Origin: an uncultured Flavobacteriales bacterium
Lineage (GTDB): Bacteria > Bacteroidota > Bacteroidia > Flavobacteriales > UBA1820
Direction: 5' to 3'
Assembly: GCA_902462305.1 (NCBI GenBank)
Contig: CABQBC010000008.1
Location: 20,775-84,774, forward strand
Length of the DNA: 64,000 nt
In this document: positions 12,923-64,000 of the stretch, piece by piece
Numbering within the stretch: position 1 is the stretch's first letter
How the letters are laid out: each line of letters opens with the position of its first letter
Program-made: the position numbers and the translations under genes
The notes under the pieces: generated by a model
The model's input: the letters and a program-made list of their open reading frames with translations, nothing else
Database searches by the model: none
Told to the model about the DNA's origin: nothing

Positions 12923-12943
12923 TATGAACTTCTCTTCTTTTCC

Positions 12944-17373: not shown

Positions 17374-17460
17374 AAAAAAAATTCACACTTACAATCAGCC
17401 TTAGTCATTAATGGCAAGTGTTTGAGAACCGTACTTTTATTCCGTAATATCCTCTCCTCT

Positions 17461-17695: not shown

Positions 17696-17759
17696 AATAA
17701 AAGGCGAACGAGGTAATTAAATAATGCCGATGATTAATAGTACTTTTAATCAATCACGC

Positions 17760-17806
17760 AAAAAAAAACTGAAACGCCATACATGACACCACGTATAGCG
17801 TTTCAG
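17760..17806 (-). terminator. terminator of metF
   Basis: On the minus strand the stem is ctgaaacgc ... gcgtttcag (9 bp) followed by T9. It lies 22 nt downstream of the metF stop. Confidence 0.7.
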
Positions 17807-17827
17807 CACTGCCCGTAACACGCCGTA

Positions 17828-18778: not shown

Positions 18779-18938
18779 TTTTTTCCTCGTTTTGTGTTGC
18801 GATGTGCAAATATGCGCATTTTTGATTATTTGTTTTTACCGCCGCCGAGTTTTATTGTTGTTTTTTTAACACAGCAGCGCAAACGGACACTAACCGGCAA
18901 ACATGGTTTAAGCACAATACGGATATGATAAAACCTGC

Positions 18939-20177: not shown

Positions 20178-20628
20178 GCGATATATTGTATGGAAACTTC
20201 GGCAAAATTAGTCTTTTCAAAATTAAAACACCCATAAAACACTGCCTGTGTGTGAAAAATCAGCCCTAAAAATGGAAAAACCGCATCTCGATTCGCATCG
20301 GGCACGGTTTTCCTGTCATAGTTTCAGAGGGGATATTCGGTTCCCCACGGTTCATATACAAATTGTGTACTGCAAATATCGGTGCAAACATGCTCCGGCA
20401 CACTATAAAATGATGTCTTATTGAGAATTAGCATTCCCTGCACATTATCTGTTAGTACAAATATCCGAGTCCGATACTCGTTTTTAAGGGCAAATCCGCC
20501 GGCATTGAACTTCATTTTCACAAAACGGACACAAAAAAACATCCGTGTTTCGTTTTCCGCATTTGTGGCATTCGTCATGAAATACGTCCATTTTCCCGGA
20601 CCTCCGGATATTAAAACCGTAAAAAGGT

Positions 20629-20636
20629 TATATTTG
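20629..20636 (+). promoter_or_regulatory. Bacteroidota -7 promoter motif upstream of tsaE
   Basis: TATATTTG, 24 nt upstream of the ATG at 20660. Confidence 0.55.
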
Positions 20637-20659
20637 CAACGCACAACAAAACATCGACA

Positions 20660-21085
20660 ATGGCTTCCACGATATATTTCAAAGACGTAACGTTAGAAGA
20701 CCTTCCTGCTACAGCCAAAACCATCGCGGACAACATAAAGGACGGCGCCACCGTACTTCTCGAAGGGGAGATGGGTGCGGGCAAGACCACACTGGCCAAA
20801 CATCTGGTAAGCGCTATGGGATCGGCCGACCAGGTTTCCTCGCCTACGTTCTCGATAGTCAACCAATACGGCACACAAAGCGGTAAGACCATATACCACT
20901 TCGATTTTTACCGTATAGACGACCCTGCCGAGGCGTTCGACATGGGTTACGAGGAATATTTCTACGGCGGGGCCACCTGTATAGTGGAATGGGGGGAAAA
21001 AGTGGAAGGCTTGCTGCCCGAAAAAGTATCGCGCATACGTATAGAGAAAACGCCTGCCGGACGTGACATTACCTTTATGGAGTGA
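20660..21085 (+). CDS. tsaE: tRNA threonylcarbamoyladenosine biosynthesis ATPase TsaE
   Basis: 141 aa with Walker A GEMGAGKTTL, the SPTFSIVNQY block, HFDFYR, and EWGE at the C-terminus. Confidence 0.92.
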   Translation: MASTIYFKDVTLEDLPATAKTIADNIKDGATVLLEGEMGAGKTTLAKHLVSAMGSADQVSSPTFSIVNQYGTQSGKTIYHFDFYRIDDPAEAFDMGYEEYFYGGATCIVEWGEKVEGLLPEKVSRIRIEKTPAGRDITFME

Positions 21086-48952: not shown

Positions 48953-49622
48953 ATGTCAGGGCTATCAGGTGCGGGAGAACGGACTTATATGAAATATATC
49001 AAATACTTGGGAACGTTTAACCCTAAAGCTACAAAAGAAACAAAAGATGCCTATGAAGATATCATGGGATATAAGATACATGTAGCATACGCAGCGACAC
49101 GATTGGTCAAAGAATTGCACAAAGGACAGGTAGATCAAGCAGATAAAGATTACTTTGAAGGACATTTATCGTCTGTCGGACGAAACGGTTTCGACTGGAA
49201 AGAAAAAACTGTGGGATTTCTACACGATGCAGCTGAAGATACAGGTCATACCGTAAAAGAGATCATTAGAAAACTGAAAGCGATACTGGATGACTGGGAG
49301 CAGAACAAGGAAAAACATGACTGGATTTATGAATTTGAAGATATCGTAGTATCAAAAATACCACAAATTAACAAAGCAAGAATAGGACGAGATTGAAGAG
49401 GCTCTCAATCTGATGGACTTCCGCACAACTGCCAATCGTGAAACATATATCGAGCGTTTCTGCAGACATCGTTTGGCCATCAAAGTCAAATTGAATGACC
49501 TTCAGCACAATATGAATATTGCCTGCATTCTACACCCGACAGACAAAGACCTTGAAAGTGTTGAGAAATACCAAAAAGAATACAATCTTTTACTAAAAAT
49601 GTTGGAAGAATATAAAACATAA
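48953..49622 (+). pseudogene. RelA/SpoT-type HD hydrolase-like protein, interrupted by a frameshift near 49386-49393
   Basis: The N-terminal ORF has LHKGQVDQADKDYFEGHLSSV...FLHDAAEDTGHTVKEI (the H...HD..ED pattern of the SpoT-like HD domain). The family-typical C-terminus EEALNLM...ETYIERF...AIKVKLNDLQHNMN continues in another frame (49386-49622). Confidence 0.6.
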
Positions 49623-50066
49623 CATTTATAGAAATATAATGTGACCATAAGGAGTTGCTTGACATGCACACATTTAAGAATGAGAAAGCAAGTCTTAGGT
49701 TCAGCGTTCTGATAACCTACATGGATAAACTCAAAAGATTCCTTGATGCAATAGCGAACCTCTTCCCGGAAACTACAGTCATACCGCGCATATCACAACC
49801 AGTTACATAAGGGAACCAAAAACCAAGATATCTTTCTGAAAAAACGCAAATTAAACTGTAACAAAAAAATAATTTTAAGGCATAATTTGATTCTTAGTAA
49901 TAAGGACTTGAATTTTGAACAATTCAGGTCAGATACTTAGAAAGTTATGTACTATGTAATCGCAAGTTACTAACAAACAAACGGGTATGGTTCATATGTG
50001 ATATTTGCCGCTTTCAGCATTGGCGAAAATTGACAAAGAGCCGGAAATAAAAAGGAAGGATTTTTA

Positions 50067-50097
50067 TTATCGCACATCTTTTCATATCTTTATCGCA
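50067..50097 (+). promoter_or_regulatory. direct repeat TTATCGCA x2 upstream of the XRE regulator (candidate operator / C-box)
   Basis: ttatcgca occurs at 50067-50074 and again at 50090-50097 (23-bp spacing), 20-50 nt upstream of the ATG at 50118 and followed by an AT-rich stretch. Confidence 0.35.
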
Positions 50098-50117
50098 AAA
50101 TATAATATATATTTTAT

Positions 50118-50309
50118 ATGAACCGCATAAAAGACGTGCTGACAGAAAAAGGCATCAAACAGACTTGGCTTGCCGAGAAACTCGGCAAGAGTTTCAGCGT
50201 AGTCAATTCCTATGTCTGTAACCGCCGCCAGCCGAGTTTGGAGGTACTGTTTGAGATAGCAAAGATTCTTCAAGTCAACCCGAAAGATTTAATTGAAAGC
50301 AAAGAATAA
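50118..50309 (+). CDS. XRE-family helix-turn-helix regulator (controller-protein-like), heads the type III R-M module
   Basis: 63 aa. IKDVLTEKGIKQTWLAEKLGKSFSVVNSYVCNRRQPSLEVLFEIAKILQV is a canonical HTH_3 pattern. Confidence 0.85.
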   Translation: MNRIKDVLTEKGIKQTWLAEKLGKSFSVVNSYVCNRRQPSLEVLFEIAKILQVNPKDLIESKE

Positions 50310-50315
50310 AATATT

Positions 50316-50459
50316 ATGGCAAAAATGCATTATTGGGTATTCCAGATATGGGAAAAATCTCAAATCGTAGCAAAAAAGAGACTTGCGAAAGGCTATTCAG
50401 CCTTAATAGCCGTCTACGACGAATGTATAACAAAAGCAACGGAACTTTTAAAAGTATAA
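50316..50459 (+). CDS. 47-aa ORF between the regulator and mod, unknown function
   Basis: Below the ORF-track cutoff. ATG at 50316 and TAA at 50457-50459 give MAKMHYWVFQIWEKSQIVAKKRLAKGYSALIAVYDECITKATELLKV. It starts 6 nt after the HTH stop and ends 4 nt before the mod ATG, so it fills the gap exactly. Confidence 0.4.
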   Translation: MAKMHYWVFQIWEKSQIVAKKRLAKGYSALIAVYDECITKATELLKV

Positions 50460-50463
50460 AAAT

Positions 50464-52107
50464 ATGCCTACACTGACTTGGATAGGAAAAGATAAAGTTG
50501 TGAATCATCATCAGGAGGTGCCATATCGGGTGCTGGAACACCAGTACGGGTTTCGGGCGGAGGATACAGATGATAAGACACCGACAAACAGCGGCAACAA
50601 GATCATACACGGCGACAACTTAGAGGCGCTGAAATCATTGCTACCCGAATACGAAGGTCGCGTTAAGTGCATCTATATCGATCCGCCGTACAATACGGGC
50701 AACGAAAAGTGGGTTTACAATGACAATGTGAACGACCCGAAAATCAAGAAGTGGCTGGGCGAGGTAGTCGGCAAGCAGGGCGAGGATTTGAGCCGTCATG
50801 ACAAGTGGCTTTGCATGATGTATCCGCGCCTGAAACTGCTGCACAAGTTATTGGCGGAAGACGGAGTTATTTTCATTTCGATTGACGATAACGAGCAGGC
50901 GAATTTGAAATTGCTGTGCGATGAAATATTCGGGGCGAATAAATTTGTCGGACAAGCAGTTTGGTTCAAAAAAAGAAAAGGATCATACTTGTCTAAAGAA
51001 TTTGTAAGCCTTACGGAGTACGTAATTTGTTATAGAAAAAATGATAAATTGAATCTATATGGAGGAAAGCCTAATAGTGGAGAATCTCAACCACTAGTAA
51101 AAAGAACCAACACTGTTGGATTACTAACTTTTCCAGCTAATATTGTTAGAACAAGACTTTTAGATAAGACATATCAATCGGGAATATACGGCAAAGGATC
51201 AAGTTCTGTTGAATTGTTAACGGATATTCATATCGAAAATGGAAGAATCATTAATGAATTTCAGCTTAAAGGGCCTTTTATTTGGACGCAAGACTTTTTA
51301 AATAGTGAATTAAAACAAGGTGCTGAAATCGTAATTAATACAATAAATTTACAGCCTCGAGTATTTAGAAATTCAGATGATAAATATAAAGGATTCCCAT
51401 CTTTTATTGATGGGCGTGAATTTTCTGCAACAAATGATGATGCTTATGAAAATTTAATAGACATCTTTGAAGAAGAAGGTATTTTCAATTATTCCAAACC
51501 TATGGAATTTGTTTCATTTTGTATCAATTCAATAGCATATTTCGATAAAAACGCCATTATCCTCGACTCCTTCGCCGGTTCAGGGACAACAGCCCATGCC
51601 GTACTGAATCTGAATAAGAAAGATGACGGTAACCGCAAATTCATTTTGGTTGAAATGGAAGATTATGCCGAAAACATTACTGCTGAGCGTGTACGGCGAG
51701 TAATGAAAGGTTACGGCGAGGGTAAAAATGCCGTAGCCGGAACGGGCGGCGCATTCGACTATTACGAGTTGGGCGAACGGATGTTCGACGAGAATCAAAA
51801 CCTCAACGAGAATATCGGCGAAGAGAAGATCCGCGAATATATCTACTACACCGAAACCAAGCGACATTTGGAACGCGAACGCACCAAAGTCGCTAAATAT
51901 CTGTTGGATACATACAATGCGACGGGTTACTATTTCTATTATGAAAAAGATTGTCTTACGACGCTAAGCATCGATACGCTGCATATCGTGACGGAGCGTG
52001 CCGAGCAGTATGTTATTTACGCCGACATCTGCACTGTACCGCCTCAAGTGATGGCAGCCCAAAATATTATTTTCAAAAAGATTCCGCGCGACATCAAACG
52101 ATTCTAA
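50464..52107 (+). CDS. mod: type III restriction-modification methyltransferase (Mod), beta-class N6-adenine/N4-cytosine type
   Basis: 547 aa. Motif IV DPPYNTG (50680-) precedes a variable middle region, which precedes motif I DSFAGSGTTAHA. This IV-TRD-I order is typical of Mod. The gene is directly followed by res. Confidence 0.88.
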   Translation: MPTLTWIGKDKVVNHHQEVPYRVLEHQYGFRAEDTDDKTPTNSGNKIIHGDNLEALKSLLPEYEGRVKCIYIDPPYNTGNEKWVYNDNVNDPKIKKWLGEVVGKQGEDLSRHDKWLCMMYPRLKLLHKLLAEDGVIFISIDDNEQANLKLLCDEIFGANKFVGQAVWFKKRKGSYLSKEFVSLTEYVICYRKNDKLNLYGGKPNSGESQPLVKRTNTVGLLTFPANIVRTRLLDKTYQSGIYGKGSSSVELLTDIHIENGRIINEFQLKGPFIWTQDFLNSELKQGAEIVINTINLQPRVFRNSDDKYKGFPSFIDGREFSATNDDAYENLIDIFEEEGIFNYSKPMEFVSFCINSIAYFDKNAIILDSFAGSGTTAHAVLNLNKKDDGNRKFILVEMEDYAENITAERVRRVMKGYGEGKNAVAGTGGAFDYYELGERMFDENQNLNENIGEEKIREYIYYTETKRHLERERTKVAKYLLDTYNATGYYFYYEKDCLTTLSIDTLHIVTERAEQYVIYADICTVPPQVMAAQNIIFKKIPRDIKRF

Positions 52108-52111
52108 CCTT

Positions 52112-54739
52112 ATGGAACTCAAACAATATCAAAAAGAGGTAATCGCCGATTTGGATGCATATATCGGGTATGTTGAAAAATACAACCGCCCCGATACGGC
52201 ATTCCATAAATTCTGGGAAGACAAAGGTATTCCGATCTCGGCAATCGACAATTACTATCTGCACCCGTACGACAACAGCATTACCGATTTGCCTCATGTA
52301 ACGGTCAAAGTGCCAACCGCCGGCGGCAAGACTTTTATAGCCTGCAATGCACTGAATACGATATTCAAGCATCTGCCCGCTGACAAGCCGAAAGTCGTGG
52401 CGTGGTTCGTGCCGTCGGATACGATTCTGAAACAGACCTATAAAAATCTGAACGACCCGTCGCACCCCTACCGGCAGAAGATCGACAGTCATTTCGGCAA
52501 TGCCGTATGCGTTGTCGACAAAGAAGCAGCATTGTTCGGGCATGGCATAAGTCCGACGGAGATTCGCGAGCAGCTGACTATTTTCGTATTGAGCGTGCAA
52601 TCGTTCGCCGCCAACAACAAGGACGGGCGACGTGTCTACCGTGAAAACGAGAATCTGGCGGAGTATGCCAAATTGTACGACACGATGACCAAACGAGTGG
52701 AAGGCTCAGACGAAACGGGATTGATCCAGGTACTGTCGTATCTGAATCCGGTCGTCATCATCGACGAAAGTCATAACTTCGAGGCCAACCTACGTGTGGA
52801 TATGCTTAAGGCTATCAATCCGTGTTTCATTCTCGACCTGACGGCGACGCCCCGCAATAAGAGCAATATCATCAGTTTCGTGGATGCCATTAAGCTCAAA
52901 CGGGCTAATATGGTGAAATTGCCGGTTATCGTATATAACCATCGCTCGACGAATGATGTCGTTTCGAGTGCGATACAGATGCAGCGTAGTCTGGAACAAA
53001 AAGCCATTGCGATGGAGGCAGAAGGTAGCCGGTACATTCGACCGATTGTGCTGTTCCAAGCCCAGCCGAAAACCGATGACGACAATATTACGTTCGACAA
53101 GATCAAAAAGAAGCTTATCGAAATCGGCATTCCTGAAGACCAAATAAAAATCAAAACGGCGAACAAAGACGAAATTAGAAACACCGACTTGTTGTCCCGC
53201 GACTGTCCGGTGCGTTACATCATTACGGTCAATGCGCTGAAAGAGGGCTGGGATTGTCCGTTCGCCTACATTCTCGCATCGCTGGCCAACAAGACCTCGC
53301 GGGTGGATGTCGAACAGATACTGGGCCGCGTATTGCGTCTGCCCTATACGACCAAGCACAAAGAGGAATTGCTTAACCTGTCATATGTATTTACCTCGTC
53401 CAACGATTTTCGGAATACGGTCGAGAATATCATAGAGGGGTTGAACCGTGCAGGCTTCAGCAAAAAGGATTACCGCGTAGCCGAGGCCCAGACAGAACCC
53501 GCTCCCGTTCCGACCGGGCAATCGTCTCCGAACCTGTTCGGCGACGACGAGCCGGTGCACGATACGCCTGCAATCACGACAACCGACGACATCGATGAGC
53601 AGATAAACACCGAAACGATTAAAACGGCGATTGCAACACCCTCCGAAAATACGGGGACGATCGAACTGGAGTCTTTTGCCCGGAAGGAGAATGAGAGCTA
53701 CAATCAACAGATGGCGCAGCAGACAGATAATAACGACATTCCGAATGATATTAAAGGTATGATAACCACATATCCGATTAAAGATATTTTTGCGGACAAA
53801 GCCAAAGAACTGGCATTGCCCCAATTCGTGAAAAAGATAAATGCCAACTTGATATTTGACGATGAATATGTTCCGTTGGACAAGGCTATGCTTGCTGAAG
53901 GGTTCGATTTGGACAAGTGCGACCACAATATCGACTTTACCCGAACCGAAAGTGAAGCGGTGCGTGTAGACCTGGAAAAATCCAGCGGAGATGAATATGC
54001 CGTTACAAGAAGAAACCTGACTGCAAATCAATTATCATTCATCAAACAACACTTTGCGACCTTATCGCCGGAAAGCAAACAGAGGCAACTGGCAGACATG
54101 TTAGCAAAAGGCCTTCGTTTCGACGAAATCTCCGAACCGCAGGTTGCACGTTATATCAAAAGGGCTATTGCAGGCGTAGATTCCGAGCAACTCGAAGATT
54201 TATACACGAACGATTGGCAGACAAGAAATACGATTCGCCAGAAGATCGAGTCGCTGCTGTCTGCCTATCAAGAAAAGAAATTCAAAGAGTGGCTCGACAC
54301 CGGTCAGATAAAATGTCAAGCTACATATCGCCTTCCGGAGCGGATAACCGTGAAAACAAAGTCCATCGGCTTGGCAAAAGGGCTTTATACGGAAGAGGAA
54401 AACATCAACGGTTTCGAGTATGACGTTATAAACGCTGTTGCCAATTTGGATAATGTTCTATTTTGGCATAGAAATCCGAGCCGCACGGGGTTCTGTATAA
54501 ACGGTTATATAAATCATTATCCCGACTTTATCGTCCTATTGAATAGCAACATTACCGTTCTTCTTGAAACAAAAGGCGATGATAGAGATAACTCAGACAG
54601 TCGGACGAAGGTCGAGTTAGGAAGGACTTGGGCCCATAAAGCAGGCGAGCAGTATCGTTATTTTATGGTATTCGAGAAGCAACAGATGGATGGTGCGGTT
54701 ACTATCAAGGAACTTTTGCAAAGATTGAGTGCAATGTAA
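52112..54739 (+). CDS. res: type III restriction enzyme Res subunit (SF2 helicase-nuclease)
   Basis: 875 aa with Walker A VPTAGGKT, DEAH-like IIDESHN, helicase C motifs (LKEGWDCPF, QILGRVLR), and a C-terminal PD-(D/E)xK-like block YPDFIVLL...VLLETKGDD. Confidence 0.88.
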   Translation: MELKQYQKEVIADLDAYIGYVEKYNRPDTAFHKFWEDKGIPISAIDNYYLHPYDNSITDLPHVTVKVPTAGGKTFIACNALNTIFKHLPADKPKVVAWFVPSDTILKQTYKNLNDPSHPYRQKIDSHFGNAVCVVDKEAALFGHGISPTEIREQLTIFVLSVQSFAANNKDGRRVYRENENLAEYAKLYDTMTKRVEGSDETGLIQVLSYLNPVVIIDESHNFEANLRVDMLKAINPCFILDLTATPRNKSNIISFVDAIKLKRANMVKLPVIVYNHRSTNDVVSSAIQMQRSLEQKAIAMEAEGSRYIRPIVLFQAQPKTDDDNITFDKIKKKLIEIGIPEDQIKIKTANKDEIRNTDLLSRDCPVRYIITVNALKEGWDCPFAYILASLANKTSRVDVEQILGRVLRLPYTTKHKEELLNLSYVFTSSNDFRNTVENIIEGLNRAGFSKKDYRVAEAQTEPAPVPTGQSSPNLFGDDEPVHDTPAITTTDDIDEQINTETIKTAIATPSENTGTIELESFARKENESYNQQMAQQTDNNDIPNDIKGMITTYPIKDIFADKAKELALPQFVKKINANLIFDDEYVPLDKAMLAEGFDLDKCDHNIDFTRTESEAVRVDLEKSSGDEYAVTRRNLTANQLSFIKQHFATLSPESKQRQLADMLAKGLRFDEISEPQVARYIKRAIAGVDSEQLEDLYTNDWQTRNTIRQKIESLLSAYQEKKFKEWLDTGQIKCQATYRLPERITVKTKSIGLAKGLYTEEENINGFEYDVINAVANLDNVLFWHRNPSRTGFCINGYINHYPDFIVLLNSNITVLLETKGDDRDNSDSRTKVELGRTWAHKAGEQYRYFMVFEKQQMDGAVTIKELLQRLSAM

Positions 54740-54752
54740 TTAGCAGATAGCT

Positions 54753-55661
54753 ATGGACGATAATAAAATAATTATTTACCAAGACGATAACGACGTAACG
54801 CGAGTGTCCGTTCGTTTTGCTGACGAAGATTTGTGGCTTACGCAGAATCAGCTGGCTGAGATATACGATACGACGCAGGAGAATATCTCCATGCACATTG
54901 CGAACATATATCGAGACGGAGAGTTGGAGTTGGACCGAACTTATAAGAAATTCTTATTAGTTCGTACCGAAGGTTCTCGGCAAGTGAAACGCAATATCGA
55001 CCATTACAACCTAGATATGGTTATCGCGTTGGGCTATCGCGTTCAATCACAGATCGCCACACGATTCCGTCGCTGGGCAACGCTTCGGCTTCACGAATAT
55101 ATCCAGAAGGGCTTTGTGATGGACGATGAACGACTCAAACAGGGCGGGAATCGCTATTTCAGGGAACTCTTGCAGCGCATACGGGATATTCGCAGCAGTG
55201 AACGCAATTTCTATCAGCAGGTTACGGATATTTACGCGACCGCCGTCGACTATGATCCACGCAGCGATATGACCAAAACATTCTTCGCTACGGTTCAGAA
55301 TAAGCTGCACTATGCCGTTCACGAGAATACCGCAGCCGAGGTAATCTATAACCACGTGGACAACGAAAAGCCTTTTGTCGGAATGACAAACTTCAAAGGC
55401 AACTATGTAACCAAAGACGATGTGAAAATTGCCAAGAACTATTTATCGGAAATCGAATTGCAACGGTTGAATCTTTTAGTATCGGGATTTTTGGATTTCG
55501 CAGAATTTCAGGCGTTGGAGATGAATCCGATGACAATGAAAGATTGGATTGAGACGCTCGATAATCAAATTATCGCCAACAAGTGCAAGGTATTGGCAGG
55601 CAAAGGCACTGTTTCCAAAAAGCTGAAAAGGAGTTCGACATATACCGTCGGCGCGAAATGA
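54753..55661 (+). CDS. rhuM: RhuM-family protein, C-terminal tail shifted out of frame
   Basis: 302 aa with IIYQDDNDVTRVSVRFADEDLWLTQNQLAEIY...NISMHI..IY, YNLDMVIALGYRV and FYQQVTDIYATAVDYD. The expected tail AEKEFDIYRRREMSLFESDFDRAIKML is encoded from 55622 to 55723 in another frame, after an A5 run at 55617-55621. Confidence 0.8.
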   Translation: MDDNKIIIYQDDNDVTRVSVRFADEDLWLTQNQLAEIYDTTQENISMHIANIYRDGELELDRTYKKFLLVRTEGSRQVKRNIDHYNLDMVIALGYRVQSQIATRFRRWATLRLHEYIQKGFVMDDERLKQGGNRYFRELLQRIRDIRSSERNFYQQVTDIYATAVDYDPRSDMTKTFFATVQNKLHYAVHENTAAEVIYNHVDNEKPFVGMTNFKGNYVTKDDVKIAKNYLSEIELQRLNLLVSGFLDFAEFQALEMNPMTMKDWIETLDNQIIANKCKVLAGKGTVSKKLKRSSTYTVGAK

Positions 55662-55730
55662 GCCTGTTCGAAAGTGATTTTGACAGGGCCATTAAAATGT
55701 TGAAAGGAAAAGACGAAAAATAGATTTCGT

Positions 55731-56360
55731 ATGATTCGCGAACTAACCTACAATAACAGGATACTGTCCGAACAAGAACGTGCAGAGTTCTGCAAAAAAT
55801 CAGATGAAGATATACACGAGTTTTCCGAGTGTATTGAGGGAATATGCCAACTTGCAAAGGAGGTTCCGGAATCTGAAAATTCTGATTATAACAAAATAAC
55901 TAATACAATAATCAATATCAGCACTTTTACAGGTTACTCTTTTTGTGATTGCATCGTATTGACAAAATTATTTGTCAAGGCGACGAATCCGTATGAAAAA
56001 AGTTTTCTTCGGGGCAAACTGAAGGTTCAACTGAATGAAGGCTTCAAAAAGCTATATGGGTTTAACAAGAAGGGGTATAAAGATTCATATTGCGCACATT
56101 TAGAAGATATTATAACAATGTTCCCCGGATTCAAGGACGAATTTGATGAACTATTGTCAGACTTGGAGCAAATTTCAAAAAATTCTTGGTGGAAAGACGA
56201 AAGAGATGCTGAAGTACACATCGACGCGACCAAACTCTATGAACTACGACATGAAGAGATAAATGAGAGTAAAATTGTCATGGAAGCAGTGCAATTAACG
56301 GATTTATTCAACCGTTTTAATCATCTTGTAGCCAGATTGCATCGAGTGTATCTCAATTAA
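55731..56360 (+). CDS. hypothetical protein (209 aa), no recognisable domain
   Basis: A clean ORF starting 8 nt after the out-of-frame rhuM tail. It is predicted helical, with several Cys near the N-terminus (CKK...CIEGIC...CDC). Confidence 0.55.
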   Translation: MIRELTYNNRILSEQERAEFCKKSDEDIHEFSECIEGICQLAKEVPESENSDYNKITNTIINISTFTGYSFCDCIVLTKLFVKATNPYEKSFLRGKLKVQLNEGFKKLYGFNKKGYKDSYCAHLEDIITMFPGFKDEFDELLSDLEQISKNSWWKDERDAEVHIDATKLYELRHEEINESKIVMEAVQLTDLFNRFNHLVARLHRVYLN

Positions 56361-56364
56361 TTAT

Positions 56365-56523
56365 ATGTTCTTCAAGGAGTACATGCCACGCTACGGTTAC
56401 AAATACCTCTGCACCGAAGATGATGACTACAAGTATTATCAGACACTTGGCTTGCAACTTATCCATCAAGACCTGTTCGGACAGGATAATTATGGATTAG
56501 CGATGAAAGATTTGAATATCTGA
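56365..56523 (+). CDS. 52-aa ORF, unknown function
   Basis: Below the track cutoff. It reads MFFKEYMPRYGYKYLCTEDDDYKYYQTLGLQLIHQDLFGQDNYGLAMKDLNI, starts 5 nt after the upstream stop, and is followed by a terminator-like hairpin. Confidence 0.35.
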   Translation: MFFKEYMPRYGYKYLCTEDDDYKYYQTLGLQLIHQDLFGQDNYGLAMKDLNI

Positions 56524-56539
56524 TACTTGGTTTAGAGTT

Positions 56540-56570
56540 AAGGAGGAGATTTTTTCCTCTCCTTTTATCT
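56540..56570 (+). terminator. probable terminator closing the type III R-M / rhuM module
   Basis: An imperfect hairpin, aaggaggaga-ttttt-tcctctcctt (9 of 10 positions pair, including one G-T wobble), followed by T-rich sequence. Confidence 0.45.
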
Positions 56571-56859
56571 TTATATAGCATAAGATTTTATATCTATGAC
56601 GTAAAAGCTATCAAATCTATGATTATGGTGTGTCAATTGCGTAATGATTTTAATACCATTCGCAAGATGCTACCGGACGGCGTATATCGTGTATCCTGAA
56701 ACTATTCCGTATGATGGCAAGAAGTGCTATTATCTTTCTCATCGTTCTCCAGATAGCAGCTTTCCAAAAAGTTGATGAATTTTCCAGAAAACATCATTGG
56801 TATATCGAAATAAATCACTAATTATGCAAAATACGCAATACTAATAGCGGTTTTTACAA

Positions 56860-57078
56860 ATGGGAAAAGAACTCAATCGACTAAAAGTGGTGCTTGCTGA
56901 AAAGAGACGCACTAATAAATGGTTGGCACAACAGCTTGGTAAAGACCCTGCTACTGTATCCAAATGGTGTACTAATACAGCGCAGCCTTCACTTGAGACA
57001 CTTTCTGATATTGCCATGAGTCTTGAAGTTGACGTTAAGGATTTACTTCAATCGTCAATTAAGAAACAGGATTATTAA
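56860..57078 (+). CDS. XRE-family helix-turn-helix regulator (controller-protein-like), heads the M/S/kinase operon
   Basis: 72 aa. LKVVLAEKRRTNKWLAQQLGKDPATVSKWCTNTAQPSLETLSDIAMSLEVDVKDLL follows the same HTH_3 pattern as the 50118 gene. Confidence 0.85.
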   Translation: MGKELNRLKVVLAEKRRTNKWLAQQLGKDPATVSKWCTNTAQPSLETLSDIAMSLEVDVKDLLQSSIKKQDY

Positions 57079-57132
57079 AATAGACCAAGATGGATATGGC
57101 AATAACTTTAAACTTATGTAATTTTGTATAAT

Positions 57133-59154
57133 ATGGCTAACTATGACATCGACAAAAAGCAGTTGCAGGATGAGGTTGTCCTTGATGACAACCAACTTGT
57201 CTGTGTCTTGACCAATTCTATAAAAACCGCCACCGAGAAAGAACTTCTTCTTCAATCTATAATCAACCAGATGGACGAGGAATATGAATTTGATCTTTCC
57301 GATATGAAACGCAACTATTCTTTCTCATATGAAGATGATGAGGGAAAGAAAAAGCGCATGACTATAGACTTGGCAATATTCCCTCATGGAGCAGAGAAAG
57401 AACCGGAAAATATAGAGCGTATTTGCATTGTCTTTGACTCTAAGGCAAAAGAAAGCGATAAGAAGAAGGGTGTCGAGGCTACTCTTCATAAGGCACTCCA
57501 AGCTACAGGGTGCGACTTCGGAATGTGGACTAATGGAGATAAACAATTCTTTGCCTATAGAAAAGAAGATGAGATTGGCAATGAACGAATTGAAGATATT
57601 AGCGATTTCCCCGGTTGCGATGAAACCATAGAAGATCTTGAAAGCATGGGCGACCGTGCCCAACCTCGTAAGGCTGCCAATGATACTCTTATTCGCACGT
57701 TTAAGCGTTGTCATGACTATCTTTACGGAAACGAGGGTAGAAAAAAGGATGCGTTTTGGGAACTTCTCAATCTGATATTTTGTAAGATTTTCGATGAAAA
57801 ACGTCGCTTTTCGGATACCGAGAAGGGGTTCAGTTATCGCCGCCAGTTCTGGGTTGGCGTTACAGAACAGAATACACCTGAAGGTCAAGCTACAGTTGCC
57901 AAACGAATTAAGGATATCTTTGAGAAACTGAAAAAGGATGACCTTTTTAAAACAGTCTTTGACGGAAACGAGCAGATTAGTTTGTCTGACCGAGGCGTTG
58001 CCTATGTCGCATCGCAGATAGCCAAATACAATTTCCTTGATGCTACTGTTGACGTCAAGGGTACTGCTTACGAAACAATCGTAAGCAATACTCTCAAACA
58101 GGAGGCTGGTCAGTTCTTCACACCACGCAATATAATAAAGTGTATGGTTGAGATTATGAATCCAAACCAGAATTGTCGCGTGCTCGACCCAGCTTGTGGT
58201 AGTGGAGGTTTTCTTGTAATGGTTCTCGACCATGTACGTCGCCAAATAACCCGCAATATCTATTCAGCTCGTTCCGAAGCTGAGATTGAGGCTCTATCAA
58301 ATACTGATGAAATAGTCAATAGAATTGTTCGTCAATATGCTGAGTCGATGATATTCGGTTTCGATTTTGACCCTGACTTGAAGAAAGCCGCAAAGATGAA
58401 TATGGTTATGGCAGGTGACGGACATAGCAACATATTCAATATCAACTCACTTGAATATCCTAATGGTTCATTGCCTGACCTCGGACGTATAAATGAAGCG
58501 ATCAAGACAAGCGTTGACCATAGAGGCGACTATGCCACATGTGACCAACATGCGGCTAAAGACAGTGCCTTCGGCAAGTTCGATATGATATTTACAAATC
58601 CACCCTTTGGCTCAAAGGTTGAGGTTGCACAGGGCATTGTGGAACACTATGAACTGTCAGCATGGATAAAATCGCCAGAGGGACTGTTCATAGAGCAATG
58701 TTATAACTTCCTAAAACCGGGTGGTAAAATGGCTATAGTCTTACCTGATGGCATACTCAGCAACCCCAATACTGAAAAGGTTCGTGAATGGATACTTTCA
58801 AAGTTCAAGCTGATTGCATCCATAGACCTTCCGGTCGAGGCATTTCTGCCGCAAGTAGGCGTTCAGTCATCACTACTCTTCTTACAGAAGAAGACAGGTA
58901 TTGAACTTGGTCAGAAGGAAGATTATGAAGTATTCATGGCAATAGCCGAAAAGGTTGGCAAAGACCGCAGAGGCAATCCTATTTACAAACGGGATGACGA
59001 TGGTGCAGAAATTCTCTACCCGACAAAGAAAGAATGGGCAGCCCGTAATCGTCATGGAGAACTCGTAACTCGCAGTCGTATAGAACGAGTGCGCCAGCTC
59101 GATGATGACCTTCCGGAAATTTCAGAGGAATATAAAAAAATTATGGGGATATGA
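57133..59154 (+). CDS. N6-adenine DNA methyltransferase, HsdM-like core with an N-terminal HsdR_N / PD-(D/E)xK-like module
   Basis: The track ORF starts at a TTG at 57124; the first ATG is at 57133 (MANYDIDKK). Core motifs are QFFTPRNIIKCMV, DPACGSGGFL (motif I) and FTNPPFGSK (motif IV). The N-terminal region contains KKRMTIDLAIF...ERICIVFDSKAK. Confidence 0.88.
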   Translation: MANYDIDKKQLQDEVVLDDNQLVCVLTNSIKTATEKELLLQSIINQMDEEYEFDLSDMKRNYSFSYEDDEGKKKRMTIDLAIFPHGAEKEPENIERICIVFDSKAKESDKKKGVEATLHKALQATGCDFGMWTNGDKQFFAYRKEDEIGNERIEDISDFPGCDETIEDLESMGDRAQPRKAANDTLIRTFKRCHDYLYGNEGRKKDAFWELLNLIFCKIFDEKRRFSDTEKGFSYRRQFWVGVTEQNTPEGQATVAKRIKDIFEKLKKDDLFKTVFDGNEQISLSDRGVAYVASQIAKYNFLDATVDVKGTAYETIVSNTLKQEAGQFFTPRNIIKCMVEIMNPNQNCRVLDPACGSGGFLVMVLDHVRRQITRNIYSARSEAEIEALSNTDEIVNRIVRQYAESMIFGFDFDPDLKKAAKMNMVMAGDGHSNIFNINSLEYPNGSLPDLGRINEAIKTSVDHRGDYATCDQHAAKDSAFGKFDMIFTNPPFGSKVEVAQGIVEHYELSAWIKSPEGLFIEQCYNFLKPGGKMAIVLPDGILSNPNTEKVREWILSKFKLIASIDLPVEAFLPQVGVQSSLLFLQKKTGIELGQKEDYEVFMAIAEKVGKDRRGNPIYKRDDDGAEILYPTKKEWAARNRHGELVTRSRIERVRQLDDDLPEISEEYKKIMGI

Positions 59155-60554
59155 TAGCCGGTAAAATGAAAATATCAGCTGTTGGAGAATGTCGTTCTCG
59201 CTTAGATGGTTCATATCATTTAAGTGAGGCTCAAATTGTAAAAAAGAAAATAGCGGCTTCTCCTTACCCCCTTTTGAATATAGGGAAAGTAACTGAAAGA
59301 ATCTGGCACGCTGGTCGTTGGAAAAGAGTATATGTTGATAATCCTAAGACTGGCATTACACTTTTAGGCAGCTCTGCCATGCTTAAAGGCGATTTATCTC
59401 ACGAAAAGCTTGTATCCAAGAGATACACAGATGACATTTCGGATAAAATCCTGCAAGCAGGATGGATTCTTATATCATGTTCTGGCACAATAGGTAATTG
59501 CGCGTTTACAAACGCGCAACATGCTGGGAAGCTTGCTTCCCAGGATGTTATTCGGCTTAAGCCGAATAACATCCTGGGGGCTGGACTGATATATGCATAT
59601 CTTGCCTCAAAATATGGGTATGTCATGCTCACACAAGGAACATCAGGCTCTGTTATACAGCATATTGAACCAGAAAATGTCGAAGTAATTCCAATTCCCA
59701 ACTTTCCGGATTCATTTAAAAATAATGTAAACCAACTTATACAAGACTCTTCAAAACTAAGAGATGAAGCTATGTATGAGTTAGATGCAGCGGACAAACT
59801 TTTAAAAGAGAAGGCCGGATTGCGGCCATTAACACCGGAAGACTATGATTACTTTGGTCAGCATAGTGCAACTCGGAAGCCAAGTTGCTTTATTCGCAAC
59901 AGTAATGAGATATCGACCCGTTCAATAAATGCGTTCAACTATTCACAAAGACTTGAACGACTGAAAAGATTACTTCCAGCGTCAAGGCCTTTGCGTAATA
60001 TTCTTTTGAATAATACAACATTTTCTACCGGTTCTTTTCCTCGAATAGAAGTAAAAAGGGGGAACGGAGTAATGCTTATTAATCAGTCTGATGCCTTTGA
60101 CACAATCATAAATGGCAAATGGATTTCATCACGCAATGTCAATCTTTCCAATCTTGTATCTTATGGAGAAGTTATTGTGGCGGGAGTAGGCACACTTGGC
60201 GAAAATGAAACCTTTTGTAGGACATTTTTCGCTAATGAAGATTTGAAAGGACAACTCATATCCGGAGAGTTCATCCGTATGAAAACTACGAGTGATATAC
60301 CTTCAGGATTCCTCTATGCATGGCTTAATTCTGAATATGGTTTTCGCCTTATTAGAGGGACACAGGCTGGCACAAAATTATGCCGTCCCATCCCGGAAGC
60401 ATTTCTCGACATACCTGTCCCAATTCTTGCAAATGAAGACATGAACGAGATTGATCGTATGGTCAGAGACGCACACACAAAACGCCGTCTGGCTAACGAG
60501 AAAGAATTGAAAGCCATAGCAATGGTAGAGGCTGAGATAGAGAAATGGAATTAG
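59151..60554 (+). CDS. restriction-modification specificity subunit (HsdS-like, two target-recognition domains)
   Basis: 467 aa. The ATG overlaps the methylase stop (ATGA). Two homologous halves each end in a helical spacer (…IPIPNFPDSFKNNVNQLIQDSSKLRDEAMYELDAADKLLKEK and …IPVPILANEDMNEIDRMVRDAHTKRRLANEKELKAIAMVEAEIEKW). Confidence 0.85.
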   Translation: MIAGKMKISAVGECRSRLDGSYHLSEAQIVKKKIAASPYPLLNIGKVTERIWHAGRWKRVYVDNPKTGITLLGSSAMLKGDLSHEKLVSKRYTDDISDKILQAGWILISCSGTIGNCAFTNAQHAGKLASQDVIRLKPNNILGAGLIYAYLASKYGYVMLTQGTSGSVIQHIEPENVEVIPIPNFPDSFKNNVNQLIQDSSKLRDEAMYELDAADKLLKEKAGLRPLTPEDYDYFGQHSATRKPSCFIRNSNEISTRSINAFNYSQRLERLKRLLPASRPLRNILLNNTTFSTGSFPRIEVKRGNGVMLINQSDAFDTIINGKWISSRNVNLSNLVSYGEVIVAGVGTLGENETFCRTFFANEDLKGQLISGEFIRMKTTSDIPSGFLYAWLNSEYGFRLIRGTQAGTKLCRPIPEAFLDIPVPILANEDMNEIDRMVRDAHTKRRLANEKELKAIAMVEAEIEKWN

Positions 60555-60580
60555 AACAATAGATAACACCAATCATACCA

Positions 60581-63500
60581 ATGGCAAAACTTTGTACTCC
60601 AATACATAGCACAGGACCCGTGAATGCCGGAGAGAAGCATTTATTTGACTTCCTACAAGTTAACTTGCCTGACAGCTATTATATCATACCCAATGGTGAA
60701 TATCCCTATATCAATCCGAATGGGGGTACTCAGTTCATGGAGTGCGACTGCATCGTGGTTGCTCCCCATGCAATCTATCTTATCGAAAACAAGGACTACA
60801 AAGGCCGTCTTGAAGCATACGATAGCGCATGGTTTCATAACGACCGAGAAATTAAGAATCCTATTAAGGGTGTTACATTCAAAGGCAAAGTCCTTAGCGA
60901 CTATCTAAAACGCAAGAACGGACATTGGAAGGCTGCATGGATTGAATCTATTGTAACCCTAAGTAACCTCAATCAGAACAAATCAGGATTTGAGGCCGGC
61001 TCTGCCAGCGACAACAAGACATTCCTGCTCAATGATGAACTTATCAATTTCATTAAGGAGCCTGACAGGTTGCCTCATTATGTCCCGGCAAGTGCGATTG
61101 CGTCTTACCAATTCGACATTACCGACTATCTTATGGGTAGCAGTGTTAGTCGGGCTCACGTCCGCACTAATGTATGTGGTATGATTATCGACGAGATACT
61201 TGATACTACTGATGATTATGTAGAATACCTTTGCCATAAGAAATTCCCAACTGACAAAAAGTATAAGGTTCGCGATTACGCATTAAATCAGGTCGGTATG
61301 TCGCCCGTTCAGATTGAGAAGTATGAAAAGTTGGTCCATAATGGTGAGATTACCGAGGATTATCTTCCTGACAATACCGGGGTAATCATTAAGAGTCGGT
61401 TTGAGTCGGAGGAGAATCACTATTATGTGATAACGCCCTATCAAGATGACCGTTCTCTACGAAGTGAGATGGCTCGCAACACATTCACAGAGTTGGATAA
61501 GATTCAGATTTTGTTGAATGTCGCTGAGGCTCTCTCTTTAGCTCATGAACAGAATGTGATACATAGAGATGTGCGTCCGGAGAATATTTTTATCCAATCA
61601 GACCGCAGGGCTGCGCTTGCTAATTTTGGGTTGGCATATAACGAAGCTCACGATGACGCAAGCTTTAATGTCACTGTAGATTTAGAGGATTTCGACTTGA
61701 ATGCCTATACTTCTGAGGATGTATTTATTGGAGACTACTCAGCAGCATCGGATGTTTATTCTTTCGGAGTTCTTGCCTATGAGCTAATGACAGGACAGAA
61801 GTTGCCATTCGACAATTTCAAAGAGTTGTTGATGAAAGGTGGTAAACTTCCCAAGGATTTGCTTCCCTCTGCGGTAAATTCCAACGTTGAGAAATGGGTG
61901 GATGAACTTTGCGAAAGAACAATAGTTGTTGATCCGACCGAAAGATGGGCCAACATAGATGAAGTACGCCAATTCATCTTTGAGAATGGTATAATTGCCC
62001 ACACGCAGCAATCCTCAGCTCCTGAAGCCAATGGAAGTCTTGATGACTTGAAACCTACAGACCGTATTACCAACGACATAGTTCTTGGTGAAATGCTTGG
62101 CGAAGGTGGATTCTCAAAGGTTTTCAAAGCAAAACACCAATATCAGCCCGGTGCTTTATATGTCGCCAAAATATTCAAAGAGGGCGTAAGCCCACAAGCA
62201 ACTGTTGATGAATTCAAGGCATTGAATGACCTGAATCATCCGAACATAGTGAGATTCCGTGGAAACGGGACAACCAATGGAGGGTTGTTCTATACTCTTA
62301 TGGACTATGTTGATGGAACAGACATCCGCCGCTATGCGAGTGGCGACACATTCCTTCCTCTCACACTGGTGAAATCATTTCTCAAACAAATGATTTCTGC
62401 TCTTGTGTATATACAGGAAAAACAGCCTCCGGTAATACACAGAGACATCAAGCCTGAAAATATAATGTATCGCAAAGATGGGGCGTTCGTGCTCATCGAT
62501 TTCAACATAGCTACAAACAAGGAAGGAGATCGACATAAGGTAGGCACTTATCGTTATGTGGCACCCGACCTGACAGTCGGAAGCAAGATGAACTGGGACT
62601 TAGGTGCAGATACATTTGCTCTAGGAGTCACGGCATATGAATTATTAAGCCATATCTATCCTTGGGGAAGTAGTCAGACACCTGTTCTTGACCAGACTCC
62701 GGTCAACATCCTTGACAGGAATCACCTCATTTCCGATAAATTCGCAAAATTCATAATGAAGGCTTGCGAAACACGAAAGGAGAACCGATTCCAAAACGCC
62801 AAAGAAATGCAAGAGGCATTTGATACTCTTGATCGTATAGATTCCTCTATTGAATTTTATAGTAAGGATGGGACAGAATACAATATCGTCGATTATATTA
62901 ATTCCCTCTATAGTCAGAGTGAACGAGGTAATGCCGGAACTCGTGCAGGATTTAAGAACGACAACATTCTTGACAAACTGACATATACCGAGACGCGCCT
63001 CGACTCCAAACTTTTAGAAGACATAAAGCATGGTGACTATAAGCTTATAATCATAACCGGTAATGCCGGCGATGGCAAGACTGCGTTTATACGTCAGGTT
63101 GAGAACGCCGGAACAGATCTCAATTATGTTGAGTCCCGCAATGGCGCAAAATTCCGTCTGGGTGGCGTCATATTTGAAAGTAACTACGATGGTTCTCAAG
63201 ATGAACATAACCTAAAGAATAACGATGTTCTGGCAAAGTTTTTTGAGCCATTCATCGGTATTGAGGATTATCGAAGTGCTGTGGAGGGCCGCATAATTGC
63301 TATTAATGAAGGTCGATTGATGGAATATCTGGAGTCAACTCCGGAGCTTACGGGATTACATAATGCCATTGACGAATACTTTTACAAAGAGGGTGTTGCC
63401 ACCCTTCCTGACGGCGTCATGGTTATTAATCTTAATCTTCGTTCGGTTACTGCCCTTGACGAAAATGGAGAGTCATTGTTGCGCAAACAGGTAAAGGTTT

Positions 63501-64000
63501 TGACCGATAAGAAGTTTTGGAACAAATGTCTGGGATGTCCGATAGCCGACCGTTGCTTCATTAAATATAACGTCGATTCACTCAACGATTCGGCTGTTGG
63601 CAACGAGATAATAAAACGTCTGGAGTGGATAGTCCGCACAATCGTATATAAACGGGAACTCCATATAACCATGCGTGATTTGCGCTCAATGATAGCGTGG
63701 ATGCTTACTCGTGATTATTCGTGCGCAGACATGCCCCACCTTATTGAATTATTAGATAAGGCAAAAAAAGAATACGAAGAGACACTGGAAGATGCGACTG
63801 ACGAGGAAAAGAATAATCGCAGGACCACATACGAACTTGAACGGCAAAGGTGGTGGACGCGCTATTATTTCAACATTACGGCGCCTGAACATTCATGGTT
63901 CCCCAATCAGCACTCCGAAGACCGAGTCGTAAAACTTCTGCGTGAAACAGATATTGCAAATGTTGCAATACCAGAGCTTGATCGAAATCTCTATTTCAGT
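60581..64000 (+). CDS. giant multidomain protein with NERD, kinase-like (degenerate), Ser/Thr kinase, P-loop NTPase and Cys cluster; C-terminus outside the window
   Basis: Not in the ORF track because there is no stop. I translated 60581-64000 by hand and found 1140 codons with no stop. Key motifs are ECDCIVVAPHAIYLIENK (NERD), HRDVRPEN + NFG, GEGGFS / YVAKIF / HRDIKPEN / DFN / GTYRYVAPD, ITGNAGDGKT and CLGCPIADRC. Confidence 0.85.
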   Translation, partial: MAKLCTPIHSTGPVNAGEKHLFDFLQVNLPDSYYIIPNGEYPYINPNGGTQFMECDCIVVAPHAIYLIENKDYKGRLEAYDSAWFHNDREIKNPIKGVTFKGKVLSDYLKRKNGHWKAAWIESIVTLSNLNQNKSGFEAGSASDNKTFLLNDELINFIKEPDRLPHYVPASAIASYQFDITDYLMGSSVSRAHVRTNVCGMIIDEILDTTDDYVEYLCHKKFPTDKKYKVRDYALNQVGMSPVQIEKYEKLVHNGEITEDYLPDNTGVIIKSRFESEENHYYVITPYQDDRSLRSEMARNTFTELDKIQILLNVAEALSLAHEQNVIHRDVRPENIFIQSDRRAALANFGLAYNEAHDDASFNVTVDLEDFDLNAYTSEDVFIGDYSAASDVYSFGVLAYELMTGQKLPFDNFKELLMKGGKLPKDLLPSAVNSNVEKWVDELCERTIVVDPTERWANIDEVRQFIFENGIIAHTQQSSAPEANGSLDDLKPTDRITNDIVLGEMLGEGGFSKVFKAKHQYQPGALYVAKIFKEGVSPQATVDEFKALNDLNHPNIVRFRGNGTTNGGLFYTLMDYVDGTDIRRYASGDTFLPLTLVKSFLKQMISALVYIQEKQPPVIHRDIKPENIMYRKDGAFVLIDFNIATNKEGDRHKVGTYRYVAPDLTVGSKMNWDLGADTFALGVTAYELLSHIYPWGSSQTPVLDQTPVNILDRNHLISDKFAKFIMKACETRKENRFQNAKEMQEAFDTLDRIDSSIEFYSKDGTEYNIVDYINSLYSQSERGNAGTRAGFKNDNILDKLTYTETRLDSKLLEDIKHGDYKLIIITGNAGDGKTAFIRQVENAGTDLNYVESRNGAKFRLGGVIFESNYDGSQDEHNLKNNDVLAKFFEPFIGIEDYRSAVEGRIIAINEGRLMEYLESTPELTGLHNAIDEYFYKEGVATLPDGVMVINLNLRSVTALDENGESLLRKQVKVLTDKKFWNKCLGCPIADRCFIKYNVDSLNDSAVGNEIIKRLEWIVRTIVYKRELHITMRDLRSMIAWMLTRDYSCADMPHLIELLDKAKKEYEETLEDATDEEKNNRRTTYELERQRWWTRYYFNITAPEHSWFPNQHSEDRVVKLLRETDIANVAIPELDRNLYFS

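Follow-up and report, generated by a model that had tools for sequence, protein, structure and literature searches.

The Methylation-Associated Defence System (MADS) was described by Maestri et al. (bioRxiv 10.1101/2023.03.30.534895; Cell Host Microbe 2024, as cited in PMC12904381) and was found in Pseudomonas aeruginosa SMC4386 as an eight-gene operon, mad1-8 (bioRxiv 10.1101/2023.03.30.534895). According to the supplement of that preprint, Mad1 has a helix-turn-helix (HTH) domain, Mad2 is an N6-methyltransferase, Mad3 an AbiEii-type ATPase, Mad4 a DUF4276 protein, Mad5 a specificity (S) subunit and Mad6 a kinase, and the supplementary notes describe Mad7 as similar to DndG and Mad8 as similar to HerA (10.1101/2023.03.30.534895). 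In this type system, the bipartite motif TCAGNNNNTCC is methylated with N6-methyladenine (m6A) on both strands, phages and plasmids with the unmethylated motif are blocked, and phages escape via methylation (bioRxiv 10.1101/2023.03.30.534895). The published detection rule treats MAD6, MAD7 and MAD8 as mandatory and MAD1, MAD2 and MAD5 as accessory, while MAD3 and MAD4 are accessory and "not reliably detected in all systems" (bioRxiv 10.1101/2023.03.30.534895). Here, we analyzed a 64,000-nucleotide (nt) stretch of contig CABQBC010000008.1 from an uncultured Flavobacteriales bacterium, which we call the window and whose numbering is used for all positions unless another locus is named. The gene cluster that starts at 56860 and is cut by the window edge at 64000 is, judging from its predicted proteins, very probably a Bacteroidota copy of MADS with the order XRE-MAD2-MAD5-MAD6-MAD7-MAD8-PP2C, in which MAD6, MAD7 and MAD8 replace the HsdR subunit of type I restriction-modification (R-M) systems.

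To follow the cluster past the window edge, we used 21.4 kb (denoted as L001) of the public contig ERZ28573330 scaffold_152 (ENA, 181 kb), which was found via the S protein and is 100% identical to window positions 49151-64000 over 14,850 nt. In L001, the open reading frame (ORF) that is still open at the window edge encodes 1390 amino acids (aa) in full, and the gene ends at a window-equivalent position of 64753. Its stop overlaps the next gene, which encodes 528 aa (MAD7, L001 15600-17186), and 13 nt past MAD7 a 1847-aa gene (MAD8) starts at L001 17200, of which L001 contains 1401 aa. In the close relative L003, whose MAD7 is 92% identical, the stop of a 1846-aa MAD8 overlaps a gene for a 221-aa PP2C phosphatase, which is followed by unrelated genes. 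From this contig and its close relatives, the operon order is XRE regulator, MAD2, MAD5, MAD6, MAD7, MAD8 and PP2C phosphatase, and the cluster in the window makes up the 5' two-thirds of the operon. The initial annotation, which was made from the window alone, had proposed a look at the downstream DNA for the rest of the open ORF and for pglZ, brxHI/Lon-like genes or a displaced hsdR. The complete ORF was recovered together with MAD7 and MAD8, while no PglZ, BrxHI or HsdR-type gene was found on L001.

The cluster belongs to an already named system, since MAD2, MAD5, MAD6, MAD7 and MAD8 all score above the curated NCBIfam equivalog cut-offs. MAD2 (57133..59154, plus strand) reaches 763 bits against a cut-off of 720 (NF047738), and MAD5 (59151..60554, plus strand) reaches 490 bits against 400 over its full length (NF047740). 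For MAD6 (60581..64000, plus strand, the first 1139 of 1390 codons), the part within the window alone scores 575.7 bits against 460 (NF047741). MAD7 scores 542 bits against 410 (NF047733), and the 1401 available residues of the 1847-aa MAD8 score 180.9 bits against 175 (NF047742). The PADLOC models mad2, mad5, mad6, mad7 and mad8 were all matched (mad2, 6e-67; mad5, 1e-28; mad6, 1e-75; mad7, 2.5e-47 over the full model), the match to mad8 (1e-32) being given by the C-terminus of the L003 MAD8 (91% identical by tblastn), which also matches HerA at 3e-8. As such, the three mandatory markers of the published MacSyFinder model, MAD6, MAD7 and MAD8, are all present. The precomputed Pfam label PF26611 "MAD7" is attached to the gene that follows MAD6 and to all 120 listed homologues, and the UniRef name of a Dysgonomonas homologue is MADS protein. 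Our local Pfam scan gave no match for MAD7 or MAD8, though PF26611 stands in the precomputed table, and the assignment is based on NCBIfam and PADLOC. A chance origin of these matches is excluded, since the ORFs are long and the profile E-values are as low as 1e-229.

MADS as a system is thus already known and is covered by PADLOC, NCBIfam and Pfam. The initial annotation had claimed an undescribed, unnamed system and had itself stated that placement of the cluster in a named one by profile searches would refute this; with five genes above the MADS equivalog cut-offs, that claim is withdrawn. Its more general view holds, namely that of a defence operon that joins a type I-like pair of methylase (M) and S to a PglW-like protein (NERD, tandem-kinase and P-loop domains) in place of HsdR. 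What may be new are features at the subtype level, namely the Bacteroidota host, the lack of Mad3 and Mad4, and the conserved PP2C.

Compared with the MADS type system, this operon has the same gene order and strand (HTH regulator, N6-adenine methylase, S, ~1390-aa kinase protein, ~530-aa DndG-like protein and ~1850-aa HerA-type protein) and the same defence-island setting. It differs in lacking mad3 (AAA_21/AbiEii-type ATPase) and mad4 (DUF4276), which the type system has between M and S. There is no room for them between M and S, because the MAD2 stop overlaps the MAD5 start, and profile scans gave no mad3 or mad4 matches among the downstream genes or among the genes inserted in relatives. 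The host also differs, since Bacteroidota were not among the host phyla listed in the MADS survey of 2023. An eight-gene system on a Piscinibacter plasmid, whose layout is exactly mad1-8, aligns end to end with the present operon at identities of 37% for M, 30% for S, 27% for MAD6, 30% for MAD7 and 29% for MAD8. Unlike the Bacteroidota clade, it has no annotated PP2C gene 3' of MAD8.

Several points weigh against the assignment to MADS or against carrying over all that is known of it. The scores of MAD2 (763/720) and MAD8 (181/175) are barely over their cut-offs, and the XRE protein matched no MAD1 model in the NCBIfam and PADLOC scans. As L001 ends within MAD8, the last part of this gene and the PP2C gene are placed on the contig by inference from relatives with a MAD7 of 90-95% identity. 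Searches of the PDB with single sequences of MAD6, MAD7 and MAD8 and with profiles of MAD7 and MAD8 returned only generic kinases and HerA-like ATPases and no Dnd proteins, so that neither DndG nor DndH was retrieved with the two profiles. The mechanism worked out in Pseudomonas may not transfer in full, since mad3 and mad4 are required in P. aeruginosa but absent here. The restriction step of MADS is itself listed as unknown in 2026 reviews.

To see how far this arrangement is conserved, we collected relatives from a scan of one genome per species, which gave 65 loci, nearly all in Bacteroidota, with a few metagenome-assembled genomes (MAGs) labelled otherwise. The carriers include Duncaniella (95%), Bacteroides muris (90%), Prevotella/Segatella, Muribaculaceae, Parabacteroides, Dysgonomonas, Chitinophagaceae, Sphingobacterium and Myroides, the closest genome matches being a Duncaniella sp. 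MAG and Bacteroides muris. In all 44 loci with enough DNA to be assessed, M, S, MAD6, MAD7 and MAD8 are co-directional and in this order, so that the M-S-kinase order seen in the window proved to be conserved across genomes. M and S most often overlap by 4 nt (29 loci), and mad3 and mad4 are absent throughout the Bacteroidota loci. HsdR, already noted as missing after S in the window, was found neither in the remainder of the window, nor downstream on the contig, nor in the 44 related loci. The cassette has different flanks in different genomes and lies beside mobilisation genes in one B. finegoldii record. Cultured strains among the carriers are Bacteroides muris NM69_E16B (locus L008) and B. 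finegoldii TSDC17.2-1.1 (locus L071).

The PP2C gene adjoins MAD8 at a distance of -29 to +3 nt in 53 of 54 loci, with L025 as the exception (for example, L003 17133-17798 and L071 19133-19798). Its product keeps the metal-binding motifs of the family, which are R13, D18, DGMGG at 36-40, GD at 108-109, DG at 181-182 and DN at 212-213. No PP2C gene is annotated in the Piscinibacter eight-gene system, in a Hymenobacter plasmid copy or in a Bacillus thuringiensis cluster of kinase, MAD7 and MAD8 genes. We came across no reference to a phosphatase in the preprint on MADS, its supplements or the comparative papers on DndFGH and BREX (bacteriophage exclusion), a coverage that stopped short of the final Cell Host Microbe paper. 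Based on these features, we tentatively suggest, and with rather less than even confidence, that the Bacteroidota clade is a distinct and undescribed MADS subtype, consisting of a minimal set of M, S and MAD6-8 without Mad3 and Mad4 and of an obligatory, translationally coupled PP2C that would form a phospho-switch with the MAD6 kinase.

If this is true, the DndFGH-like trio would be sufficient as the restriction engine of MADS, a methylation-sensing nuclease-motor complex would be gated by reversible phosphorylation, and the Pseudomonas proteins Mad3 and Mad4 would count as an embedded, Menshen-like add-on outside the core. The Pseudomonas system is complicated by two accessory genes that the Bacteroidota form lacks; with its conserved kinase-phosphatase pair, this form is a convenient, natural minimal version. 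It would be useful for asking whether the trio is the restriction engine, how m6A is read and what purpose the kinase serves. With 65 genome loci, this form of MADS is widespread in gut and environmental Bacteroidota, which is of relevance to genetic tractability and to phage therapy in Bacteroides, Prevotella and Muribaculaceae.

MAD6 starts at 60581, 26 nt past the MAD5 stop, as had been read from the window at the outset together with an ORF that stays open to the window edge, which here spans 1139 codons to 64000. The NERD domain, two protein-kinase domains and Walker A motif reported for this ORF were also found again, with K530 in VAK, D622 in HRD and K833 in GNAGDGKT. The NERD (PD-(D/E)xK) nuclease domain spans aa 15-127 (60623..60961, plus strand; Pfam NERD 7e-14), and its E54, D56, E69 and K71 are invariant among 48 Bacteroidota MAD6 sequences, to which all further conservation counts for MAD6 refer. 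In the first kinase-like domain (best Pfam stretch aa 276-415; 61406..61825, plus strand), DFG is changed to NFG in 47 of the 48 homologues and the HRD aspartate is kept in 39. We consider this domain a probable pseudokinase, because the DFG aspartate is replaced and the HRD aspartate is variable. In the second, a Ser/Thr kinase domain (aa 503-742; 62087..62806, plus strand; Pkinase 1.5e-60), the catalytic motifs are intact: K530, N627 and D640 do not vary, and only one homologue lacks D622 (47/48 keep it). This second kinase is predicted to be catalytically active. The pattern agrees with the tandem "inactive plus active" kinases described for PglW and for kinase-fused DndF (PMC12839542, PMC10853773). 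From aa 804 onwards (62990..64000, plus strand, running past the window), MAD6 continues as a DndF/SspF-like P-loop core of the nucleotide-kinase type. The C-terminal 621 aa match the PADLOC models SspF at 8.8e-20 and DndF at 3.7e-7, and all homologues have the same Walker A motif (GNAGDGKT, 827-834).

MAD7 and MAD8 add to the resemblance with Dnd and Ssp effectors. MAD7 matches SspG at 3e-10 over its C-terminal 64 aa, and MAD8 matches SspH at 1.4e-5; like those of MAD6 to SspF and DndF, these matches are at the level of a domain only. In MAD8, D1149, the E1168-x-K1170 pair, the Walker A motif GVQGGGKS and the Walker B motif FDEAH are invariant in 28 sequences, including those from Piscinibacter, Hymenobacter and Bacillus thuringiensis. 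As such, MAD8 is a putative D…ExK nuclease joined to a HerA/FtsK-type ATPase. For comparison, DndH is a protein of ~1700 aa with a C-terminal restriction-type nuclease and HerA/FtsK ATPase (PMC10853773), and nickase and translocase activity has been reported for DndFGH (PMC11662687). In some DndF variants described by Rakesh, Aravind and Krishnan, the P-loop core is fused to NERD and to a tandem of S/T/Y kinases, one inactive and one active (PMC10853773), and the group behind that study noted an identical N-terminal "grammar" in PglW (PMC12839542).

From these features, we propose the following mechanism. MAD2 and MAD5 would assemble into a type I-like methylase (M2S1), with both swappable domains of MAD5 determining the bipartite site at which host DNA is marked, and MAD6, MAD7 and MAD8, as relatives of DndF, DndG and DndH, would take the place of HsdR and act on DNA with unmodified sites. 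In this complex, MAD8 would provide a HerA/FtsK-type motor and the D…ExK nuclease, MAD7 would provide DNA binding, and MAD6 would serve as a nucleotide-binding P-loop sensor with an active kinase and possibly a second (NERD) nuclease. The MAD6 kinase would most likely switch the complex on, or it may phosphorylate host or phage targets as a back-up. PP2C could reset the MAD6 kinase or silence it in uninfected cells, and the XRE protein may repress or tune transcription.

The main mechanistic alternative is that the system is MADS but works chiefly by abortive infection, in which unmethylated DNA triggers the MAD6 kinase, host proteins are phosphorylated and growth halts as with Stk2-type kinases, with the nucleases being secondary and PP2C acting as the antidote. 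This would fit the active-looking kinase and an adjacent PP2C that is conserved in the manner of a toxin-antidote pair. The groups of Aravind and Krishnan have proposed that the kinase and NERD domains found in fusions with DndF or PglW serve as suicide back-up effectors (PMC12839542, PMC10853773), and Pgl has been described as toxin/antitoxin-like (PMC4365076). However, P. aeruginosa cultures with MADS grew normally at a multiplicity of infection of 10 and unmethylated plasmids were simply excluded, which fits direct restriction better, and MAD8 combines an invariant nuclease motif with a motor ATPase. We therefore regard a mainly abortive, kinase-driven mode as unlikely.

DndFGH and SspFGH share with MAD6-8 a three-protein effector layout, made up of a P-loop DndF-type core, a mid-size DndG-like DNA-binding partner and a DndH-type protein of ~1700-1850 aa. 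They further share a DndF-type core that sometimes has an N-terminal NERD domain with inactive and active kinases, and a nuclease that precedes the HerA/FtsK ATPase in the DndH-type protein. On the other hand, the self mark of those systems is backbone phosphorothioation (PT), in contrast with base methylation by an operon-encoded M/S pair here; the similarity is weak (E 1e-5 to 1e-20), and no dnd or ssp modification genes lie near this locus. We considered that the trio could be a PT-dependent module of the DndFGH/SspFGH type that reads marks made by dnd or ssp genes elsewhere in the genome and happens to lie beside an orphan methylase. The matches of the MAD6 C-terminus, MAD7 and MAD8 to SspF, SspG, SspH and DndF would be expected on this view, DndFGH modules are often uncoupled from dndABCDE (PMC10853773), and a B. 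thuringiensis plasmid has kinase, MAD7-like and MAD8-like genes with no M/S pair. Yet the MADS-specific models score far above the Dnd and Ssp models, the linkage to M/S is strict (44/44), and the self mark of the MADS type system is m6A made by Mad2. No labels of dndA-E or sspA-D were found in L001 and L003 (21 kb each) or in the annotated B. finegoldii locus. This explanation is thus very unlikely, and the relation of MAD6-7-8 to DndFGH points to a homologous architecture, not to membership of the same family.

The initial annotation had explained the cluster as an undescribed hybrid, in which a type I modification module is combined with a Pgl/BREX type 2-like kinase sensor. The likeness to PglW is real at the N-terminus of MAD6, where the first 750 aa share the PglW architecture of NERD, pseudokinase and active Ser/Thr kinase (PMC12839542). 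The PADLOC PglW model is matched at 4e-65, and both proteins are of ~1400 aa and belong to methylation-based defence. While the NCBIfam PglW model (NF033442) aligned with these N-terminal 750 aa only and gave 222 bits against a cut-off of 990, the MAD6 model was passed. Moreover, the C-terminal half of MAD6 is DndF/SspF-like, whereas that of PglW has a triple winged helix-turn-helix (wHTH) and an inactive STAND domain (PMC12839542). The remaining BREX type 2 components, which are PglZ, BrxC/PglY, PglX, BrxD and BrxHI, are not present at this locus. No PglZ, BrxC/PglY or PglX-type labels occur in L001, L003 or the B. finegoldii operon or in the PADLOC and Pfam scans of the downstream genes, and the BREX PglX (MTaseX) models give at most 36.8 bits against cut-offs of 500-900. 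The view that this is not canonical BREX type 2 therefore stands, given the lack of PglZ, BrxC and PglX, but the hybrid itself is highly improbable. The whole cluster proposed as a hybrid is already named as MADS, and its effector half is closest to DndF/G/H and SspF/G/H rather than to PglW/Y/Z, as judged from the SspF/DndF, SspG and SspH/HerA matches together with the conserved motifs.

The modification half of the operon, in turn, resembles type I R-M. The two share a gamma-class N6-adenine methylase with a separate two-domain S subunit, shuffling of recognition domains, translational coupling and a bipartite m6A motif, the last of which was demonstrated in the MADS type system. They differ in that HsdR (an SF2 helicase-nuclease) is lacking here and that MAD2 has an N-terminal HSDR_N_2-like domain. 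The public gene call starts MAD2 at ATG 57133, and a mechanical ORF list gives the alternative TTG 57124. Both methylase motifs reported from the window were found in MAD2, DPACGSGGFL at residue 355 and NPPFG at residue 492, as counted in the 676-aa ORF from TTG 57124 (minus 3 for the 673-aa call). MAD2 therefore contains a SAM-binding motif and the catalytic NPPF. MAD2 matches Pfam N6_Mtase at 5e-36 and PADLOC MTase_II at 2e-267, and its N-terminal match to HSDR_N_2 ("type I R protein N terminus", PF13588) has an E-value of 1.3e-6 over aa 43-162 (window 57133-57620). The 467-aa MAD5 has two target-recognition domains, and its ATG overlaps the MAD2 stop as ATGA at 59151-59154, as had been read before, which would couple the translation of the two genes. 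It matches Pfam Methylase_S at 3.5e-6 and PADLOC Specificity_II at 1e-142. From the PADLOC "type II" methylase (2e-267) and specificity (1e-142) matches, it follows that older models with a type II label already covered the M/S pair, while in NCBIfam, M and S match the MADS-specific equivalogs and not the generic HsdM and HsdS models.

When MAD5 was compared with that of relatives, its two halves showed different degrees of conservation. Compared with L003, identity is 20-40% in the N-terminal half and 80-95% in the C-terminal half, and with L005 the pattern is reversed, so that the first recognition domain is swapped relative to L003 and the second relative to L005. Across L003, L005, L008 and L071, identity is 85-97% in one recognition domain and 20-60% in the other, and which of the two is conserved varies by relative. 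Since M and MAD6 remain 92-97% identical in relatives where the MAD5 recognition domains differ, such a mosaic beside nearly unchanged neighbours argues for swapping of recognition domains. The mosaicism of MAD5 is as would be expected if diversifying selection acts on a specificity subunit.

Least probable of all, and in our view close to excluded, is a decayed or split type I R-M system with hsdR elsewhere or lost and with the kinase and downstream genes as passengers of the defence island: the type I-like families of M and S (N6_Mtase, Methylase_S), the Mod/Res and RhuM genes upstream and the unrelated genes between S and MAD6 in other loci would allow for it, but the five genes keep order and direction in 44/44 loci across Bacteroidota classes and on a Betaproteobacterial plasmid, their junctions overlap or are a few nt apart, the cassette moves as a unit between different flanks, and M and S match the MADS equivalogs rather than generic HsdM/HsdS. 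The ResIII gene at 52112-54739 is part of the upstream type III-like pair.

The first gene of the MADS operon is at the Mad1 position of canonical MADS. The ORF at 56860..57078 (plus strand), originally read as an XRE HTH gene, was confirmed and encodes a 72-aa XRE-family HTH regulator (HTH_26, E 1.9e-10; HTH_3, 2e-7). Conservation of this gene is detectable in a subset of the related loci only, and a search around it for an operator-like inverted repeat found none. Directly upstream is a conserved leader (56768..56859, plus strand), which is a probable promoter region, as homology at the DNA level with L003 and L005, two related cassettes, starts at 56768. With L008 and L071, the homology starts farther upstream, at 56367. 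A G+C-rich hairpin with a T run (GGAGGAGA-TTTTTT-CCTCTCC-TTTT) at 56543-56570, 3' of a 52-aa ORF at 56365-56523, resembles a terminator and likely separates the upstream genes from the MADS operon.

The upstream genes include a type III-like R-M pair, Mod at 50464-52107 (N6_N4_Mtase) and Res at 52112-54739 (ResIII). The pair is preceded by a small HTH gene at 50118-50309 and followed by a RhuM-family gene at 54753-55661. With the type III-like Mod/Res pair and RhuM directly upstream, the MADS operon lies in a defence island. At 42%, the G+C content of 56860-64000 is below that of the whole window (47%).

The related loci also showed genes that vary around the conserved core. In 10 Bacteroidota loci, S and MAD6 are separated by unrelated inserted genes, of which there are none in the window. 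We recorded such cargo between MAD5 and MAD6 in L011, L030, L040, L041, L044, L046, L052, L055 and L057, and also in L039 and L047. The products are SIR2/pAgo-N-like; Schlafen-AlbA_2 with HATPase_c_4 and wHTH; CpXC with a protein of ~735-910 aa without known function; or PDC-S02 PD-DExK. Given these products, the possibility that the S-MAD6 inserts are displaced mad3 and mad4 was rejected. The cargo looks like "embedded" defence genes at a position other than that of mad3 and mad4 in Pseudomonas.

On the 3' side of PP2C, 179-aa and 741-aa genes in L003 were considered as parts of the system and were rejected, as they are not conserved. A protein of ~183-190 aa without a family match is encoded right after PP2C in ~12 loci (L026, L039, L047, L050, L052, L053, L055, L059 and others; L003 20617-21189), with 47-59% identity (75% in L005) and often with overlapping stop and start, and it could be a further accessory component. 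In L060, L061 and L062, MAD2, MAD5, MAD6, MAD7 or MAD8 is split into several ORFs, which would reflect either decaying copies or frameshift errors of assembly. Finally, the B. thuringiensis plasmid pKK1 (L072, NZ_AP014865.1) encodes the kinase, MAD7-like and MAD8-like proteins at 5193-20724 of that record; ahead of them are a 255-aa protein and one of 1308 aa that faintly matches BrxC/BrxD. Since this trio occurs without an M/S pair, the effector trio can apparently couple to other front ends.

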